From assembly GCA_026004395.1 (NCBI GenBank), contig BPJB01000001.1, positions 519,343 to 583,342 on the forward strand: 64,000 nt of DNA. The letters are read 5' to 3'. This DNA is from Patescibacteria group bacterium. GTDB taxonomy: Bacteria > Patescibacteriota > Microgenomatia > Levybacterales > UBA12049. A model generated the notes under the pieces. The model ran no database searches. It was given only the letters and a program-made list of their open reading frames with translations, and was not told the origin of the DNA. Positions within the stretch are counted from its first letter, which is position 1. Every line of letters starts with the position of its first letter. Made by a program: the position numbers and the translations under genes. This document shows positions 17,878-25,453 of the stretch, piece after piece.

Positions 17878-18113
17878 ACTAAAATTTTATCATATATAGT
17901 CAAGAAGCAATAGTTGGAAGCTTGGGAAATTTTTATAAATTACCAATAGACTTCAAGGTTTAATAATTTTCACTTGGAAAATATCAGATAAATAGATCAT
18001 ATTTATCTTAAATGTTTTAAAAGAAACTTTCTTAATTAGAGAGTTGCTTCTTATTAGTTTAATGAATTTAAATAATCTTCTGACAATATATTAGAAAGTG
18101 CTAATATATTATT

Positions 18114-18395
18114 ATGAATATAATTCTTTCTGCATTATGCAACCCTACTAGATTACAACTTATCCAATGTATCTCCCAAAAACCCAAAAGTGTTAGTGAG
18201 ATGATTTCAATTTGCGGACTTTCTCAATCAGCAGTATCACAACATTTAGCGAAATTGCGTCGAGCTGGTCTTGTCATAACAGAAAAAAAAGGAAAAACCG
18301 TTTATTACCATTTGGCATATCCACAATTAGGAGATCTTTCCTCTAAGTTGCAAAGATTTATTCAGGAGGTGGGAATGTGGGTAAGCAAAAAATAA
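18114..18395 (+). CDS. ArsR/SmtB-family transcriptional regulator
   Basis: 93 aa winged-HTH protein with SVSEMISICGLSQSAVSQHLAKLRRAGLV and KGKTVYYHL. Confidence 0.85.
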   Translation: MNIILSALCNPTRLQLIQCISQKPKSVSEMISICGLSQSAVSQHLAKLRRAGLVITEKKGKTVYYHLAYPQLGDLSSKLQRFIQEVGMWVSKK

Positions 18396-18642
18396 AACAT
18401 GTTAAATTGTATGCAACATTAAGTTGTCCATACTGCAAAATGGAGAAAGCCTGGCTTGATGAGAAAAAATCAAACATGAAATAGTTTTCGTAGATTTAAA
18501 TCCTATAGAAGCTGAAAAGATGGTCTTAAAAACAGGTCAAATGGGTGTTCCGGTAACCGAAATTCAGTTTGAAGACTCTAATCCAGAATACATTGTTGGT
18601 TTTGATGTACCAAGACTTTCACAAGTGTTAGGTATTGTATAA
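18377..18642 (+). pseudogene. Glutaredoxin/NrdH-like thioredoxin-fold gene, frameshifted
   Basis: GTG start with an AGGAGG SD 7 nt upstream. It reads MGKQKIKHVKLYATLSCPYCKMEKAWLDEKK, then a stop. The reading frame resumes in the +1 frame after an A6 run (18464-18469) as IKHEIVFVDLNPIEAEKMVLKTGQMGVPVTEIQFED...VLGIV. The CPYC active site is present. Confidence 0.6.
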
Positions 18643-18645
18643 ATT

Positions 18646-18951
18646 ATGTTTGGAAATGGAGAAAATATTCCCTCAGTAGAGGTAGAAGAAGTAAAACAGG
18701 CTCTAGATGCTAATAAAGACGTTATACTTCTTGACGTAAGAACGGAAGCAGAGTACCAAAAAGGCATCTTAATCACAGCATTCATTTGCCTCTTACTATG
18801 CATTTGAAAACGCAGAAAAATTCTCAGAGACAAAAAATAAATTATTTATATTTATTGCCTCAGCGGTTCACGCAGTATTTATGCAACTAAGAACTTGCGT
18901 AAGATGGGATATGAAAATGCATTAAAATATAAATCTCATAGATCAATGTAA
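18646..18951 (+). pseudogene. Single-domain rhodanese (sulfurtransferase) gene with about three frameshifts
   Basis: Frame 1 gives MFGNGENIPSVEVEEVKQALDANKDVILLDVRTEAEYQKG. The shifted frames give HLNHSIHLPL, then YAFENAEKFSETKNKLFIF, then YCLSGSRSIYATKNLRKMGYENALKYKSHRSM. The last carries the rhodanese active-site loop CxSGxRS. The shifts fall at A/T homopolymer runs. Confidence 0.6.
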
Positions 18952-18966
18952 TTAGGTATTAGATCA

Positions 18967-19377
18967 ATGAAAGTTTTCTGTGTTACAATAAGTAGTATGA
19001 AAGTTGCTAAACTTGGAGATCTCGAAAAAAAAGTAATGGATATTGTCTGGGAAAAGAAAAAATGCACTACACGTGATGTAGTACAGAATCTAAAAACCAA
19101 TAGACACTTAGCATATACAACTGTTGCGACAATACTCCAGCGACTTTGGCATAAAGGACTTGTTATCAGAAAGGAAAGTAAAACAGGCTATATCTACTCT
19201 CCGAAAGTTTCTAAAGACAGATACAGCAAGAGTATCGCTCAATCATTTTTGAAAAGCTTCATCAACTCATATGGAGATACTGCAATTGCTTCATTTGTTG
19301 ATAGCATAGAAAAGCTTCCGAATGCAAAACGAAACTATTTTTTAAAGCTGCTGGAAGAACATGGTAAAAATAAATAA
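18967..19377 (+). CDS. BlaI/MecI/CopY-family transcriptional repressor
   Basis: Winged-helix motif VMDIVWEKKKCTTRDVVQNL...YTTVATILQRLWHKGLV typical of penicillinase-repressor-family proteins. The true start is probably the internal Met (MKVAKLGDLEKKVM). Confidence 0.85.
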   Translation: MKVFCVTISSMKVAKLGDLEKKVMDIVWEKKKCTTRDVVQNLKTNRHLAYTTVATILQRLWHKGLVIRKESKTGYIYSPKVSKDRYSKSIAQSFLKSFINSYGDTAIASFVDSIEKLPNAKRNYFLKLLEEHGKNK

Positions 19378-20317
19378 AAATCTTGCTCTATTTGGAGGTT
19401 TACTTCTTTTTCTAGGAACACTTCTTGCTTTTATATTGAAAAAAATTTTTCCGTTCATAGATCATGTGTCATATTATTGTCAAACTCTTCTTAATTCTCA
19501 GATGAATCCCATTCCTTATTACTTAAGTATTATTCCTATCTTGGGTCTTTTTTTAATTCTAGCGATTGCTATTTTTAAATTTTTGATTTTAATTGCAAAA
19601 GTTGAATACTTAAAACATACACTCAAAGTTAAAATAACTGTGAAAAAATCAATCAGTAATCTTATAAAGGATCTTAATTTGGAAGAAAAAACAATAGTTA
19701 TAAAAACTAATGAAAAATTTGCTTATTGCCTAGGGATAAAAAGCCCAAAAATTTATATCTCAACAGGGATCATTTCACGCTTGTCACAAAAAGAGCTAGA
19801 AGCAGTATTGCGACATGAGCAATATCATATAGAAAACCACGATACGTTTACCATGATTATTGCTTCTGTTGTCCATTCTCTCTTTCCCTTTTTTCCAATC
19901 CTTGACGATCTAATCAAAAAGTATCGAATAGAACGGGAAATAAGAGCAGATAAATTCGCCATTCAACATTTAGGAGAGTCATCCGCACTAATATCAGCAC
20001 TGAAAAAATTACTCACATTTCCAACAACTGGTAACACTCTAATGACAGCAATAGCCGATCAAGATACACTTGAACCAAGAATCTTTTCTTTGATTAAGAG
20101 AAAAGATGTAAAATATCCCTTTCGCTTAAGAAATATCTTCATTACTATTTTTTCTTCATTAGTTATTTTTGTATTCACAGTCTCACCGGTTCAAGCTCAG
20201 GAAATTCATCATGATGAACACGATTTACTTTTGATCTGCACTAATACCTCATGTATGAACTCCTGTATAAATAATGACAACCTAGATAAGTTCTATTCTG
20301 AGATTCTAAAAAAATAA
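19361..20317 (+). CDS. BlaR1/MecR1-like M56-family membrane metallopeptidase lacking a penicillin-binding sensor domain
   Basis: TM helices and the HEXXH motif LRHEQYHIENHD in the M56 arrangement. The short Cys-rich C-terminal segment is not a transpeptidase-like sensor. Confidence 0.8.
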   Translation: MVKINKNLALFGGLLLFLGTLLAFILKKIFPFIDHVSYYCQTLLNSQMNPIPYYLSIIPILGLFLILAIAIFKFLILIAKVEYLKHTLKVKITVKKSISNLIKDLNLEEKTIVIKTNEKFAYCLGIKSPKIYISTGIISRLSQKELEAVLRHEQYHIENHDTFTMIIASVVHSLFPFFPILDDLIKKYRIEREIRADKFAIQHLGESSALISALKKLLTFPTTGNTLMTAIADQDTLEPRIFSLIKRKDVKYPFRLRNIFITIFSSLVIFVFTVSPVQAQEIHHDEHDLLLICTNTSCMNSCINNDNLDKFYSEILKK

Positions 20318-20358
20318 TTACCATCATTTTTTTACAGTTGCAATTTTATCAATTGTCT

Positions 20359-20373
20359 ACTACAATTTGTAGT
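20359..20373. promoter_or_regulatory. Operator 1 (ACTACAA-T-TTGTAGT dyad) overlapping the -10 of the promoter for the 20376 gene
   Basis: Inverted repeat containing CTACA-N3-TGTAG. A -35 TTGCAA (20338-20343) with 17 nt spacing gives a -10 TACAAT (20361-20366) inside the dyad. The ATG lies 3 nt after the dyad, suggesting a leaderless transcript. The dyad resembles BlaI/CopY TACA/TGTA operators. Confidence 0.6.
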
Positions 20374-20375
20374 AT

Positions 20376-21455
20376 ATGATTTCTAACAACGACAATATAA
20401 AAAATATAAAAATTATCAAAAAAAATAACACAATCAAAACAAAAAATGATTTAACTGGGAAACATCTTCCACATGAAAAGTCAGATGATTATATTTATAT
20501 ATCCCTCTCTAGAAAAAGTATTCTTTTTTTCTTGCTTATACCTTTTATACTTCTTACAATAGTACTTTCTTTCAACTATTTGTTAACCCCAGAGTTAAAG
20601 CAAAATTTTTTGGAGAATTCAGCTGTCTGGTTGCATGAAAAACCATTAATAAAAAAATATATCCCTGCAAAGTGGTTGCCTAAAGATTACATTCTCAATC
20701 AAGTACTTCCAGAAAAAGGCTACCAAACAAAACTTTCTTTTGGCAATATTGGTCTGAAGATGGTACAAGCTGGGGTAATTGATATACAAAAATTGGAGGA
20801 AATCTATAAAAATAGAGGTGGAATTCCAAAGGAGATGAAAAAACTCCTTACTGAACCATCCAATATACCTATTTTAGTCACAAAAGAAAATAGTGTCTGG
20901 CTTATTAATATTCTCTGGCCATTAGGTCTTTCCAACAGAATGCTTCTCAATGAGCAAAGTCCAATTTCTGGAGAAAACGTTGGCAACTACGCATCAACAG
21001 GAGGATGGACACTGGGAAAAGAGCAGAATGGTGGAGTGTATTTCAATAAATTACGACTTATAGAATTATCTTCTGAACAAGAAAAACGTGTTGTTGCGAT
21101 TGCTGAAAGTATTTATCGCCCTTGCTGCAACAATTCTTCTTTCTTTCAAGATTGTAATCACGGTTCGGCAGCCTTAGGGCTTATTGAATTAGGAGTTGCT
21201 CAAGGATTAACGGATGAAGAGATATATAAAACAGTACTTGTATTTAATTCTTACTGGTTTCCACAAAACTACACTGAAATGGCTTTTTACTTTCAGCATG
21301 CAAAAAATAAGGTCTGGAATGAGATTGACCCCAAAATGATACTTTCTAAAGAATATTCGAGTCTTAGTGGATGGATGACAAATATTCATACACCTGCACA
21401 AAATATCCCAGGACTTATTCCACCAACAGAAAGTGGAGGAGGCTGCTCTGTCTAA
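20376..21455 (+). CDS. Hypothetical membrane-anchored protein with a Cys-rich motif (CCNNSSFFQDCNHGSA)
   Basis: 359 aa with a single TM helix near residue 50. No family recognised. Operator 1 is directly upstream. Confidence 0.35.
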   Translation: MISNNDNIKNIKIIKKNNTIKTKNDLTGKHLPHEKSDDYIYISLSRKSILFFLLIPFILLTIVLSFNYLLTPELKQNFLENSAVWLHEKPLIKKYIPAKWLPKDYILNQVLPEKGYQTKLSFGNIGLKMVQAGVIDIQKLEEIYKNRGGIPKEMKKLLTEPSNIPILVTKENSVWLINILWPLGLSNRMLLNEQSPISGENVGNYASTGGWTLGKEQNGGVYFNKLRLIELSSEQEKRVVAIAESIYRPCCNNSSFFQDCNHGSAALGLIELGVAQGLTDEEIYKTVLVFNSYWFPQNYTEMAFYFQHAKNKVWNEIDPKMILSKEYSSLSGWMTNIHTPAQNIPGLIPPTESGGGCSV

Positions 21456-21486
21456 ACTCTTGCAGAAAATTAGGCATCACTGATAT

Positions 21487-21501
21487 ACTACAATTTGTAG
21501 T
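21487..21501. promoter_or_regulatory. Operator 2, identical to operator 1 (ACTACAA-T-TTGTAGT)
   Basis: Same 15-mer. An extended -10 TGaTATACT (21481-21489) overlaps its left arm, and a -35 TTGCAG lies at 21460-21465. It sits 21 nt upstream of the 21522 ATG. Confidence 0.6.
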
Positions 21502-21521
21502 ATTGACATTACATATTTACT

Positions 21522-22004
21522 ATGACAGTAGAACAAAAGATTATTGGAGGTATTAGTCTTTTAACACTTGGTATTTTAGGAGGTGCAGTTTTTTTGTTAT
21601 CAGGCAGTAGCAGTAATGTAAAATCGTCTATCCCTAAAGAACAAATAGTTGCAGAAAACGGTATCCACTGGCACCCAAGGCTCTTAATATCTATCAAAGG
21701 TCAAAGACAAGAGATTCCTGCAAATATTGGAATTGGTGCTGTACATCAAAAAATTCATACCCACCCAGAAGATAACAAAGAAGGTGTAATCCATATGGAA
21801 ATGCAGGGTATTGTTACTAAAGATGAAACTAAGTTAGGTAATTTCTTTAAAATTTGGGGGAAGGAATTTAATTCAAATCAGATCTTCGATAAAAAAAATG
21901 GCAAAGAAGGTAAGTTAAAAATGTTAGTAAATGGAAAAGAAAATAACAGTTTTGAAAATTATCAAATGCGTGACAAAGATCTAATTGAGATTATCTATGA
22001 ATGA
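21522..22004 (+). CDS. Hypothetical membrane-anchored protein, His-rich (HWHP...HQKIHTHPED...HMEMQ)
   Basis: 160 aa with an N-terminal TM helix and several His clusters suggesting metal binding. Family not recognised. Confidence 0.35.
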   Translation: MTVEQKIIGGISLLTLGILGGAVFLLSGSSSNVKSSIPKEQIVAENGIHWHPRLLISIKGQRQEIPANIGIGAVHQKIHTHPEDNKEGVIHMEMQGIVTKDETKLGNFFKIWGKEFNSNQIFDKKNGKEGKLKMLVNGKENNSFENYQMRDKDLIEIIYE

Positions 22005-22040
22005 TTAATTAAAGATACTAGCTAAGCGTATTCGTTCAAA

Positions 22041-22934
22041 ATGCAAAAAATATTTATCTCAATTGCTATAGGTGTTGTTCTTTTGGGAACAGCTTTCTAT
22101 TTCAATTTAAATCCTCAAAGTCAAAGATTGATTAAAATTGATGAATATTCAAAAGATACAAGCAATTATCCTGATGCAAAACAACCTGAAATTGTTGAAT
22201 TACAGAATGGAGATTCGTATAACTTAACAGCAGGCATTGTAAAGAAAAAGATTAATGGAGTTTATATAAAAATGCTTGCGTATAATGGTTCAATTCCTGC
22301 TCCTCTGATCAAAGTTCCACAAAATGCTGAGAGTACCATCAATTTTAAAAACCAAACAGACTTTGTTACTACCTTACACTCACATGGTGTTAGACTTGCC
22401 AACCGATTTGACGGCGTACCTGACATCACTCAAAAAGCTATTAAACCCGGAAGAACATTTACCTACAAAATCAATTTTCCAGATCCAGGCGTCTATTGGT
22501 ATCATCCTCATCTAAGAGAAGATTACGCACAAGATCTGGGACTCTATGGCAATTTTATTGTCGAACCGGCGAACAAAACTACTGGGCAGAGGTGGATCGT
22601 GAGGTGGCACTATTCTTAGACGATATTCTAATCCAAAATGGATATCAATTGGCTATTTCAAAAAGGCGATAAAGTAAAAATAAAAATCTTTAATGACCCT
22701 AATTTATTCCAACGATGCAACATCCTATAGATATTCATGGACAGAGATTTTTTGGTAACCAGTATTAATGGGATATCAAATCAAAATCTTTTTTGGAAAG
22801 ATACTGTGCTTGTTCAAACTGGTGATACTGTCGAACTTCTCGTTGATATGGCTAATCCCGGTGAATGGTTGATCCATTGTCATATTCCAGAACATATGGA
22901 GGCTGGAATGATGCTGAATTTTAAGGTAATGTAG
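22041..22934 (+). pseudogene. Multicopper oxidase gene, two-cupredoxin-domain size, disrupted by about 4 frameshifts
   Basis: N-terminal part has the HSHG and WYHPH copper motifs. The downstream frames give NYWAEVDREVALFLDDILIQNG, then KGDKVKIKIFNDPNLF, then MQHPIDIHGQRFF, then LVTSINGISNQNLFWKDTVLVQTGDTVELLVDMANPGEWLIHCHIPEHMEAGMM. That final stretch carries the HPxHxHG and HCHxxxHxxxGM copper sites. Every shift is at an A or T homopolymer. Confidence 0.65.
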
Positions 22935-23155
22935 AGTTAACTCTAGACTAAATTAGCTATCTAAAATATTTATTTAAAACTTTCAAAGAGCACAGCACAT
23001 CGAATTGATAACTATAATCCATAATTTATTTATATTGGTAATATGATGTCATAGACTGTATTATTACAAATATATTCTAAGCAAGATAACAATATAAATA
23101 CTAACATGAATGTTTTACGAGAGAGAGAAACAGATTAATATGCTTGACGTCTATT

Positions 23156-23168
23156 CTACATACTGTAG
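23156..23168. promoter_or_regulatory. Operator 3 (CTACA-TAC-TGTAG) in the copper ATPase promoter
   Basis: Same CTACA-N3-TGTAG dyad as operators 1 and 2. It lies between a -35 TTGACG (23144-23149) and the -10 region, about 35 nt upstream of the 23201 ATG. Confidence 0.55.
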
Positions 23169-23200
23169 TAAATAACACTTATATTATGTAAAATAAAGTT

Positions 23201-25453
23201 ATGAAGGAAAAAATGAGTCATAAAATTTATACCTGCACCATGCATAAGAAAATCCATTCAGATAAGATGGGTAATTGTCCAAAGTGCGGGATGAATCTTA
23301 TTGAAGCAAAAATCAAAATGGATCATAGCAAAATGAATCATGAAGAGATGAAGCATGATGAACATGTCATGCACACTAAGAAACCCATATCTGAGATGTC
23401 TTTTTGGGAGAAATTTAAGATGAGTATGACGATGACCATGGGTATGGAACACACAGGTGTTGCAGGAGAAGAAATGGCTAAGCTCATGGAAAAGGATATA
23501 CGTAATAAATTTTTTGTAGCATTAATCCTCACAATTCCTATCATTGCTTATTCACCGCTTGGAGTAAATCTTCTTAGGCTGCAACTGCCAACACCAATAC
23601 CTGCCAACTGGATTATGTTTATTTTGGCAACACCAGTCTTTTTCTATTCGGGGTGGATCTTCCTTTACTCAACATATAAGGCTTTACAAGCAAAGACACT
23701 CAATATGGCAGTTCTTATTGCTGTTGGCATCACAGCATCTTATGTATTTAGCGTTGTCTTGACACTTATGGGAAGCGATGAGTCATTTTATGAAGCCAGC
23801 GCAATGCTTACTACTTTTGTTTTGTTTGGCCACTGGATGGAAATGAAATCTCGAAGAGGTACTACAGAAGCACTGCAAGCTTTATTCAACTTAGTTCCTC
23901 CGCAAGCTCGTCTTTTGAAAAACGGAAAAGAAGAAATAGTTCCAACCTCTCAAATCAAGCTTGGCGACATTATCATCTTAAAACCGGGTGATAAAGTACC
24001 AGTTGATGGAGAAATTATAGAAGGAGAAACAAGCATTGATGAATCACTTGTAACAGGCGAGTCTATTCCAGTCGCAAAGAAAAAAGGTGATCAAGTCATT
24101 GGGGGATCTATAAATATATCTGGATCAGTCAAATTTAAAGCAACTAGAGTAGGAAAGGACACAGCACTTGCCCAGATTATAAGAATGGTAGAGATCGCTC
24201 AAAGTTCAAAAGCTCCAGGACAGAAAATTGCTGATAGATTTGCAAAATATTTAGTTATCGTGGCAATAGGTGGAGGGCTAATTACTTTTGCTGTATGGTT
24301 TTTGATCATTGGCCAACCACTGATGTTCTCTCTTACTTTCGCAATCTCAACTGTTGTTATCGCTTGTCCAGACGCTTTAGGTCTTGCAACCCCTACGGCT
24401 GTTGCAGTTGGTACTGGACTTGGCGCAAAGCACAATATTCTAATTAAAGATGCTCCCACCCTTGAGCAAGTATCAAAGATACAGACAGTAGTACTGGATA
24501 AAACAGGAACTCTCACAGAAGGAAAACCAAAAATTACTGATATTATCACACTCAATGAATTAACAGAAAATGAAGTATTAAGACTGGTTGCCGCAGCAGA
24601 AGCCAAATCAAGCCACCCTTTAAGCAAAGCTGTTCTTGAAGAAGTTGCCAAAAGAAAAATCAAGATACAAAAGGATGTTAAGAATTTTCACAATATTGCA
24701 GGACACGGCGTTGAAGCTATAGTTGAGGATAAACATATCTTGGTGGGTACTGCCAAGCTGATGCGAGATCGTAGCATTAGTGTTGCTCACTTTAAAAAAG
24801 ATATGGATAGACTGCTAGCTGATGGAAAAACACTTATGTTTGTAGCCATTGAAAAGAGAGTTGTTGCATTGATTGCTGCAGCTGATCCTATTAAACCGAC
24901 TGCCAAAAAAGCTATAGATCGCATGAAAGAACTCGGTCTTGAAGTAGTGATGATCACAGGAGACAACAAAAAAACAGCTGAGGCTATTGGCAAACAGCTT
25001 GGTATTGAGAGAATCTTTGCTGAAGTGCTCCCTGAAGAGAAAGCAAGATATATCAAGAAATTACAAGATCAGGGAAAATTTGTAGCAATGGTAGGAGATG
25101 GGGTGAATGATGCACCGGCTCTTGCTCAAGCAGATATAGGTATCGCTATTGGCGCTGGAACAGATGTTGCCATAGAGACAGCAAAAGTCGTGCTAATGAA
25201 ATCCGATCCTGCGGATGTGGTGCGAGCAATCAAACTCTCTAAAGCAACAGTACGCAAAATGAAGCAAAATCTTTTCTGGGCATCAATTTATAATTTACTT
25301 GCTATTCCCATAGCAGCTGGTGTATTATATCCCAAATTTGGTATCGAGCTTCGTCCAGAGTTTGCTGCCTTACTCATGAGTCTCTCCTCAATAATTGTGG
25401 CAACAAATGCTGTACTTCTAAACAGAGCAGAAAATGACCTTCTAAGTATATGA
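23201..25453 (+). CDS. Heavy-metal (copper-type) P1B ATPase with an N-terminal HMBD zinc-ribbon-like metal-binding domain, a His/Met-rich stretch and an atypical CPD membrane motif
   Basis: N-terminal YTCTMHKKIHSDKMGNCPKCGMNL matches the HMBD signature Y.CPMHP....G.CP.CGM.L. His/Met-rich segment (MDHSKMNHEEMKHDEHVMH, MSMTMTMGMEH). P-type motifs TGES, DKTGTLT and GDGVNDAPAL. Membrane helix 6 reads IACPDALGLATPTA, where canonical Cu ATPases have CPC or CPH. The gene ends with a TGA stop. Confidence 0.9.
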   Translation: MKEKMSHKIYTCTMHKKIHSDKMGNCPKCGMNLIEAKIKMDHSKMNHEEMKHDEHVMHTKKPISEMSFWEKFKMSMTMTMGMEHTGVAGEEMAKLMEKDIRNKFFVALILTIPIIAYSPLGVNLLRLQLPTPIPANWIMFILATPVFFYSGWIFLYSTYKALQAKTLNMAVLIAVGITASYVFSVVLTLMGSDESFYEASAMLTTFVLFGHWMEMKSRRGTTEALQALFNLVPPQARLLKNGKEEIVPTSQIKLGDIIILKPGDKVPVDGEIIEGETSIDESLVTGESIPVAKKKGDQVIGGSINISGSVKFKATRVGKDTALAQIIRMVEIAQSSKAPGQKIADRFAKYLVIVAIGGGLITFAVWFLIIGQPLMFSLTFAISTVVIACPDALGLATPTAVAVGTGLGAKHNILIKDAPTLEQVSKIQTVVLDKTGTLTEGKPKITDIITLNELTENEVLRLVAAAEAKSSHPLSKAVLEEVAKRKIKIQKDVKNFHNIAGHGVEAIVEDKHILVGTAKLMRDRSISVAHFKKDMDRLLADGKTLMFVAIEKRVVALIAAADPIKPTAKKAIDRMKELGLEVVMITGDNKKTAEAIGKQLGIERIFAEVLPEEKARYIKKLQDQGKFVAMVGDGVNDAPALAQADIGIAIGAGTDVAIETAKVVLMKSDPADVVRAIKLSKATVRKMKQNLFWASIYNLLAIPIAAGVLYPKFGIELRPEFAALLMSLSSIIVATNAVLLNRAENDLLSI

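Follow-up and report, generated by a model that had tools for sequence, protein, structure and literature searches.

In the BlaI/BlaR1 and MecI/MecR1 systems of Staphylococcus and Bacillus, a Penicillinase_R-type repressor and an M56 gluzincin protease form an autoregulated operon. The protease senses through an outer loop and a C-terminal outer element, the latter a penicillin-binding domain of ~250 residues; the repressor is cleaved next to a phenylalanine, and operators with TACA/TGTA half-sites overlap the promoters of a regulon to which beta-lactamase or PBP2a belongs. In BlaR1, signal transmission involves contact between the extracellular loop EL1 and the sensor domain (PMC9834060). The CopY, CopR and TcrY repressors of Firmicutes have the same DNA-binding fold and half-sites and control a P1B copper ATPase, but CopY binds Cu(I)/Zn(II) itself via a CxCx4CxC motif and needs no protease. 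The cop box, KACA-N2-TGTA (RNYKACANNTGTMRNY), has the N2 spacing that is classical for BlaI, MecI and CopY (PMC7253601). The only characterized copper-responsive BlaI/BlaR pair is PetR/PetP of Synechocystis (slr0240/slr0241), in which degradation of PetR needs both PetP and copper and the operator is GACA-N3-TGTC; the paper describing it proposes two Met residues in the loop between TM2 and TM3 as the PetP ligands, and according to a review PetRP switches plastocyanin/cytochrome c6 without controlling copper homeostasis genes. PetR/PetP is the closest precedent for the system described here, which lies in a 64-kb stretch (contig BPJB01000001.1, positions 519,343 to 583,342; hereafter, the window) of the genome of an uncultured, ultra-small bacterium of the Patescibacteria (candidate phyla radiation) and comprises a blaI-type repressor gene, an M56 protease gene and a repeated operator dyad in front of metal-handling genes. 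We consider it probable that this is a BlaI/BlaR1-type, proteolysis-controlled regulon that has been rewired to respond to copper or thiol stress in the envelope. The core machinery is of the known BlaI/BlaR1 type, and it is in its candidate sensor element, regulon and promoter architecture that the system differs; a literature search yielded no BlaI/M56 system that controls copper-resistance genes, no case of metal sensing by an M56 protease and nothing of this kind from Patescibacteria.

The operator is the dyad CTACANNNTGTAG (CTACA-N3-TGTAG), which has exactly three matches in the window, at 20360-20372, 21488-21500 and 23156-23168. By shuffling, 0.08 matches are expected, and 0 of 100 shuffles reached 3. 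All exact copies are confined to one 3-kb cluster, and the looser pattern TACA-N3-TGTA has just three further, unrelated sites in this AT-rich DNA (about 34% GC). The initial annotation, made from the letters of the window, had placed dyads at these positions and had described a 15-mer, ACTACAATTTGTAGT, identical at 20359-20373 and 21487-21501; both observations hold, and the shared stretch extends to an 18-mer, TACTACAATTTGTAGTAT (20358-20375 and 21486-21503), the core of which is a perfect 7-1-7 palindrome, ACTACAA-T-TTGTAGT. Such short dyads were located by pattern search; an inverted-repeat search with a 12-nt minimum misses them, as it misses the ArsR palindrome described below. Dyads with two mismatches are common by chance (39 found in the window compared with 22 expected), so that only near-exact sites are informative on their own, and the use of two-mismatch dyads to find targets was rejected. 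The half-sites are those of BlaI/MecI/CopY operators, as first proposed, but the spacing is N3 at all sites and not the classical N2, and the dyads therefore do not conform to the cop box. An inverted repeat with N3 spacing is shared with the PetR operator, the half-site of which is GACA where TACA stands here.

Each exact dyad is built into a promoter on the forward strand, and the promoter elements given in the initial annotation are essentially right. In module 1 (20338-20375), a −35 element, TTGCAA (20338-20343), is separated by a 17-nt spacer from a −10 element, TACAAT (20361-20366), that lies inside operator CTACAATTTGTAG (20360-20372); a promoter scan also found TTGCAA-17-TACAAT, and the ATG at 20376, 3 nt past the dyad, suggests that the mRNA is leaderless. 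In module 2 (21460-21503), a −35 element, TTGCAG (21460-21465), an 18-nt spacer and an extended −10 element, TG-a-TATACT (21481-21489), lead into operator CTACAATTTGTAG (21488-21500), which overlaps the −10 element and lies within a 19-nt palindrome (21485-21503). In module 3 (23144-23174), operator CTACATACTGTAG (23156-23168) forms the spacer: it begins 6 nt after the −35 element TTGACG (23144-23149) and is followed by a TAAATA-like −10 element. A fourth, putative site had been missed. This degenerate auto-operator, TTACAATAAGTAG (18983-18995, forward strand), ends 1 nt before the blaI ATG and overlaps an extended −10 element, TG-T-TACAAT (18981-18989); with two mismatches it is statistically insignificant by itself, and its position is that at which relatives have an exact CTACAATATGTAG-t-ATG site upstream of blaI. 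The blaI coding sequence also contains a CTACA-N5-TGTAG dyad (19067-19081), common only to the two closest relatives (L034 3801 and L035 5578; L numbers denote related loci). This dyad was rejected as an extra operator on account of its N5 spacing and its restriction to those two relatives.

Conservation was assessed in 104 related loci (0.98 Mb): 30 from species-representative genomes, chosen via a 30-sequence alignment of M56 homologues, 69 from metagenomes and 5 from close relatives found by exact-protein look-up. The N3 dyad occurs 108 times in these loci, compared with about 0.8 occurrences predicted from half-site frequencies; the other spacings from N0 to N9 have 0-4 matches and arm-swapped controls 0-2. 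In homologous loci, the position of the dyad within the promoter is preserved and is of three types. Before blaI, it lies 1-6 nt upstream of the ATG as TG-C-TACAAT-ATGTAG-t-ATG, with the extended −10 element inside the dyad; after the M56 gene, it forms part of TTGACA-N18-TACA[AC]T-nTGTAG, ~40 nt past the M56 stop and 1-6 nt before the next ATG; and before csoR-like and P1B genes (L003-L005) it sits 5 nt after TTGACA, in the spacer between this element and a TAnnnT −10 element. The module 1 dyad is exact in all close relatives, and that of module 2 is kept in L031, L033 and L034. Neither of two possibilities raised with the initial annotation, that the dyad is frequent at random positions or that homologues in relatives lack it, is borne out. 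An origin of the dyads by chance, or as plain promoter sequence, would be in keeping with TACAAT being a good −10 box in itself; however, TGTAG, the right half-site, is invariant without being a promoter element, and the excess of N3 dyads is very large.

The start codons of regulated genes lie 8-10 nt past the −10 hexamer (for example, window 20361-20378 and L001 5332-5348), with no Shine-Dalgarno sequence. This spacing leaves no room for a ribosome-binding site, and most transcripts of the regulon are therefore predicted to be leaderless or near-leaderless, apparently the standard regulon architecture in Microgenomates and a difference from PetR/PetP. Many of the Patescibacteria-type loci (L003-L011 and others) are titled 'uncultured Gammaproteobacteria bacterium' or 'Sulfotelmatobacter', which is probably placeholder or mis-binned taxonomy. 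In distant blaI-M56 pairs of Firmicutes, CTACA-N3-(T/A)GTAG sites likewise precede blaI and follow M56: these pairs are L024 (7215-8540), from the cultured species Paenibacillus silviterrae, and L028 and L029, from Clostridiales and Dethiobacter. Their proteases are without the His/Cys tail described below, and their neighbours differ, being YceI-like in Paenibacillus and thioredoxin/DsbD-like in Clostridiales.

The repressor gene (18997-19377, forward strand) encodes 126 residues, with a winged-helix DNA-binding domain and a C-terminal dimerization region. Its assignment to the BlaI type is upheld by the Pfam model Penicillinase_R (PF03965; 94.7 bits, cut-off 22.6), although not the start at 18967 that was first given to it: orthologues are 124-130 residues long and begin with MK..(L)G.LE, which makes the ATG at 18997 the most likely start. 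The best matches in the Protein Data Bank (PDB) are Mycobacterium tuberculosis BlaI (2g9w, E = 6e-12), S. aureus BlaI (1sd4) and MecI (1okr); with M. tuberculosis BlaI (Rv1846c), a recognition-helix stretch, LAYTTV..LQRL, is near-identical. Ser99-Phe100 aligns with the Asn101-Phe102 scissile site of S. aureus BlaI, and Phe100 and G93 are at least 95% conserved in 52 repressor orthologues; Phe100 is conserved likewise in PetR. The repressor thus has a BlaI-type scissile site, at which cleavage is predicted. The gene overlaps that of the M56 protease by 17 nt, and the dyad precedes blaI-M56 in about 57-60 related loci, so that the pair has the arrangement typical of BlaI/MecI, an adjoining M56 gene predicted to be co-transcribed and autoregulated, with an auto-operator that is degenerate in the window itself. 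Because the dyad stands directly before blaI in 57 related loci, we assign it to the BlaI-type gene, in agreement with the initial annotation; the ArsR-type regulator encoded nearby has a different palindrome.

A repressor of this family might also sense metal directly, as CopY does, with the protease outside signalling. The best NCBIfam match of the repressor is indeed the CopY/TcrY model (TIGR02698), and the TACA/TGTA half-sites resemble the cop box. The score, however, is 55.1 bits compared with a cut-off of 121.95; a CxC motif in the last 30 residues, and with it the CxCx4CxC/CxC arrangement of CopY, is found in 0 of the 52 orthologues; and the single Cys of the repressor is at position 23, in the DNA-binding domain, 11 of the 52 orthologues having no Cys at all. 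The 17-nt overlap, the co-occurrence of blaI and M56 in about 60 loci and the N3 spacing also speak against direct sensing, which we regard as very improbable. In combining a BlaI/CopY-family factor that lacks the CopY metal site with a sensor-less M56 protease in one operon, and in keeping Phe100, the locus resembles PetR/PetP, which provides a precedent for copper-responsive degradation of a BlaI-type factor by a BlaR-type protease that has no sensor domain.

The protease gene (19361-20317, forward strand) encodes a BlaR1-like membrane zinc protease of 318 residues, 100% identical to KatS3mg089_0522 and matched by the Pfam models Peptidase_M56 (PF05569; 57.9 bits, cut-off 31) and M48 (50.2 bits). 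HEQYH (H152ExxH156) and E193xxxD197 are invariant in the 30-sequence alignment and constitute the HExxH + ExxxD gluzincin signature defined for BlaR1 (PMC9834060). The absence of a beta-lactam sensor domain, already part of the initial annotation, is clear: the protein has 318 residues compared with 585 for BlaR1, extends only 41 residues beyond its last membrane helix and scores far below the cut-offs of the BlaR1 models (NF000326, 40 bits compared with 400; NF033108, 27 bits compared with 1200). Hydropathy indicates membrane segments at residues ~6-34, 49-85 and 254-279 and a buried segment at 162-181, probably corresponding to three helices plus a re-entrant segment with the N terminus inside, whereas BlaR1 has four helices and its N terminus outside. 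For access to the cytoplasmic repressor, the catalytic domain has to be on that side of the membrane, which would put the loop at residues 35-52 and the C-terminal tail outside. The charge distribution supports this predicted topology: Lys and Arg are abundant in the loops on either side of the catalytic domain, and the last 41 residues are acidic.

The invariant non-catalytic residues of the protease are found in these two putative outer segments. In the 30-sequence alignment, they are H35 and C40, in the loop between the first two helices, and H283, C293, C298 and C302, in the tail; Met48, in the outer loop, varies. The candidate ligands thus differ from the Met pair of PetP, which was compared by description only. 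A C-x(3-7)-C-x3-C motif is present in the tail of 38 of 49 full-length orthologues. The AlphaFold2 (AF2) model of the protease has a predicted local distance difference test (pLDDT) score of 75 and a good core, with a poorly defined tail (pLDDT about 45-53). Most M56 orthologues end in (S/N)xxY(T/S)Pxx after the Cys cluster; the shorter tail of the window's clade is without this motif (window 20195-20317). BlaR of M. tuberculosis (Rv1845c) also lacks a penicillin-binding domain, and the regulon there holds blaC and ATP synthase genes; to our knowledge, no His/Cys tail has been described for it.

The Pfam and NCBIfam names of the two proteins, penicillinase repressor and BlaR1, would suit an ordinary sensor of beta-lactams or other cell-wall antibiotics. 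But the ~250-residue penicillin-binding domain of BlaR1 is replaced here by a His/Cys tail of only 41 residues, and no beta-lactamase or penicillin-binding protein is found among the operator-linked genes in the 104 loci, in contrast to the regulons of BlaI/BlaR1 and MecI/MecR1. We judge it highly unlikely that the locus is an antibiotic sensor or that its dyads arose in either of the ways considered above.

The composition of the regulon was determined by a census of all dyads that were exact (111) or had one mismatch, 173 sites altogether, in which the downstream same-strand open reading frames (ORFs) were clustered and given Pfam names. For each family we give the number of loci that have it in an operator-linked operon, followed by the number in which it is the first gene. 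Besides blaI (61, 57) and the M56 protease (60, 0), the most common families are a membrane-anchored DsbA-like thioredoxin (52, 48), a DsbD_2-cupredoxin fusion (26, 6) and a His-rich protein (21, 7), followed by an HMA (CopZ-like) protein (18, 0), a 173-aa membrane protein with a CAAC motif (16, 0), a Cys-rich protein (14, 7), a 209-aa protein with PCCCKCWHW (13, 5), a CPD-type P1B ATPase (11, 3), a multicopper oxidase (10, 0) and a CsoR-like repressor (6, 5). The targets are thus efflux, oxidase and thiol-redox genes, which distinguishes this regulon from that of PetRP; petE/petJ were not found here. The CsoR-like proteins carry Cys36, His61 and Cys65, which we take to be the Cu(I) ligand triad known from M. 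tuberculosis CsoR. In five loci (L003 1316-5884, L004, L005, L040 and L044), the dyad-linked csoR-like gene is followed by genes for a DUF7282-cupredoxin, a beta-propeller protein and a classical CPC CopA. This order suggests a hierarchy in those relatives, in which a sensor on the outer face would control a cytoplasmic Cu(I) sensor, the CsoR-like protein.

In the window, module 1 precedes the gene for a Cys-rich membrane-anchored protein, 'Cys359' (20376-21455, forward strand), with an invariant RPCCxNSxFFQDCNHGSA motif and a C-terminal Cys. The protein has no Pfam or NCBIfam match, and a permissive Pfam search with 20 members of its family likewise found none. Its family has more than 3700 homologues, some in Proteobacteria-labelled records, and a highly conserved alignment; the AF2 model (pLDDT 84) has as its sole fold resemblance a weak one, to the CcmH periplasmic thiol-redox domain. 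Module 2 precedes the gene for a His-rich membrane-anchored protein, 'His160' (21522-22004, forward strand), with HWHP and HTHxxD motifs (HWHP...HTHPED...H.E) and, again, no Pfam or NCBIfam match. Its family is confined to Patescibacteria-type sources, and its usual place is between Dsb-type genes and the multicopper oxidase. PDB sequence searches with the two proteins gave no meaningful match.

Downstream of the His-rich gene, what was first annotated as a multicopper oxidase is a pseudogene (22041-22934, forward strand), with several frame changes and ~225 central codons lost. A tblastn search with the 547-aa L003 orthologue as query recovers it as three pieces in two frames; residues ~225-449 are missing, and a stop lies inside the HPxHxHG copper site. 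The close relatives L031 and L033 have intact genes of 527-528 aa. Because the other long ORFs of the window are intact, we attribute the loss to real decay and not to sequencing error, although single frameshifts may be homopolymer errors.

Module 3 precedes a gene for a P1B-type, CopB-like copper ATPase (23201-25453, forward strand), the copper assignment of which agrees with the initial annotation. The protein has a zinc-ribbon-like HMBD, a His/Met-rich N terminus and the motifs CPD (not CPC/CPH) in TM6, YN in TM7 and MSLSS in TM8, which place it among the P1B copper ATPases. CPD defines an atypical CopB-like P1B subtype known from Rhizobiales (PMC5552934), and is conserved in relatives (L003 and L031). 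The same circuit could instead respond to another thiophilic metal (Zn, Cd, Ag or Hg), given that His/Cys ligand sets are not copper-specific, that P1B ATPases and HMA domains also serve Zn, Cd and Hg, and that the CPD motif in TM6 is atypical. Against this, the ATPase scores 602.9 bits on the copper-subfamily model TIGR01511 (cut-off 397) compared with 402.7 bits on the Zn/Cd models and has the YN and MxxSS motifs, and the multicopper oxidase, the cupredoxin domains and the C-H-C triad of CsoR all point to copper. Another metal as the signal is therefore improbable.

A stronger competitor is the proposal that an otherwise identical circuit monitors the thiol-disulfide state of the envelope through outer Cys residues that form or break disulfides; the copper genes would be passengers, copper being one cause of such stress. 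The DsbA-like and DsbD_2 families lead the operator-linked genes, four of the invariant residues in the sensor segments are Cys, several further regulon proteins are Cys-rich, and the distant Clostridiales pairs also adjoin thioredoxin-like and DsbD-like genes. However, dedicated copper functions recur in the regulon (P1B ATPases, multicopper oxidase, CopZ-like HMA protein and CsoR with its Cu(I) triad), the invariant H35 and H283 beside the Cys residues suggest metal coordination, and a copper pump is among the three targets in the window and a Dsb gene is not. We consider a pure thiol signal, together with its account of the copper genes, unlikely, though deserving of serious attention. Copper is the signal that we favour, with fair but by no means full confidence, because of the copper pump, oxidase, chaperone and CsoR genes and because invariant His residues stand beside the Cys residues; as copper damages the envelope largely via thiol chemistry, the two readings are linked. 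The suggestion in the initial annotation of a metal-responsive, perhaps copper-responsive, pair thus fits the lack of an antibiotic sensor, the His/Cys outer segments, the absence of CxC and the copper/thiol regulon, with copper itself as the inferred part.

We propose the following mechanism for the copper-responsive circuit. A dimer of the BlaI-family repressor would bind the palindrome (ta)CTACA-N3-TGTAG(ta) and block RNA polymerase, either by covering the −10 element and transcription start of leaderless promoters or by filling the −35/−10 spacer. In this genome, it would repress the Cys-rich gene, the His-rich gene with its dead oxidase, the P1B copper ATPase gene and, weakly, blaI-M56. 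The sensor would be the M56 protease, with its HExxH/ExxxD domain in the cytoplasm and two short outer segments in place of the beta-lactam sensor. Copper would bind or oxidize the outer His/Cys ligands and thereby switch on the protease, which would cut the repressor next to Phe100, so that the dimer leaves the DNA and the genes are expressed. A metal bridge between loop and tail is attractive as the activating step by likeness to the contact between EL1 and the sensor in BlaR1, but is speculative.

Several observations weigh against this interpretation. All function assigned to the circuit is deduced from sequence and comparative genomics, and the window scan covered 64 kb, ~6% of the 1.08-Mb genome. 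The commonest direct target in relatives, the DsbA-like oxidoreductase, fits thiol stress equally well. Eleven of the 49 full-length M56 orthologues are without the three-Cys tail motif, and no metal site is visible in the AF2 model, in which the tail is of low confidence. The P1B gene has an exact upstream dyad in L033 and none in L031. The auto-operator, with one mismatch in L031, L034 and L035 and unrecognizable in L033, appears to be eroding in the window's clade, while these loci keep exact operators before the Cys-rich and His-rich genes. Finally, the distant pairs have the same operator with unrelated genes, so that the operator itself is no marker of copper.

Upstream of the repressor gene lie an ArsR-type regulator gene (18114-18395, forward strand) and the decayed remnants of two genes (about 18400-18960, forward strand), glutaredoxin-like (CPYC) and rhodanese genes that are frameshifted. 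The ArsR gene has its own perfect palindromic operator, AATATATTAG-N6-CTAATATATT (18085-18110), between CTGACA and TAATAT. The DUF302, second rhodanese and 220-aa genes that relatives have in this operon (18080-18960) are missing from the window, and the region gives the impression of a sulfur/persulfide-type operon in decay, adjacent to the copper cluster.

The antibiotic-sensing BlaI/BlaR1 design has probably been reused in this bacterium as a metal sensor. One practical consequence concerns the label 'beta-lactamase regulating signal transducer' on such proteins, which should not be counted as an antibiotic-resistance gene in environmental resistome surveys. The very small putative sensor is attractive for biochemistry and biosensor design, and the Firmicutes blaI-M56 pairs could be test beds for the operator. 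The work extends the copper-responsive BlaI/BlaR pair, known from PetRP, to copper/thiol-detoxification genes with a different candidate ligand set. Gene regulation in the Patescibacteria is almost unexplored because few have been cultured, and the circuit described here is complete and comparatively validated for this group with respect to repressor, protease, operator, promoter type and regulon. A broader view is a real possibility, one that we hold back from calling probable: that a His/Cys loop and a 41-residue tail replace the whole beta-lactam domain of BlaR1 as a direct extracytoplasmic copper sensor, that this sensor is the main regulator of envelope metal/thiol stress in a large branch of the Patescibacteria, acting on leaderless promoters, and that BlaI/BlaR1 switches are a general platform, re-tuned repeatedly, for metal-detoxification sensing. 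If so, BlaI/BlaR1 proteolytic switches would not be limited to antibiotics or to the cyanobacterial plastocyanin switch.

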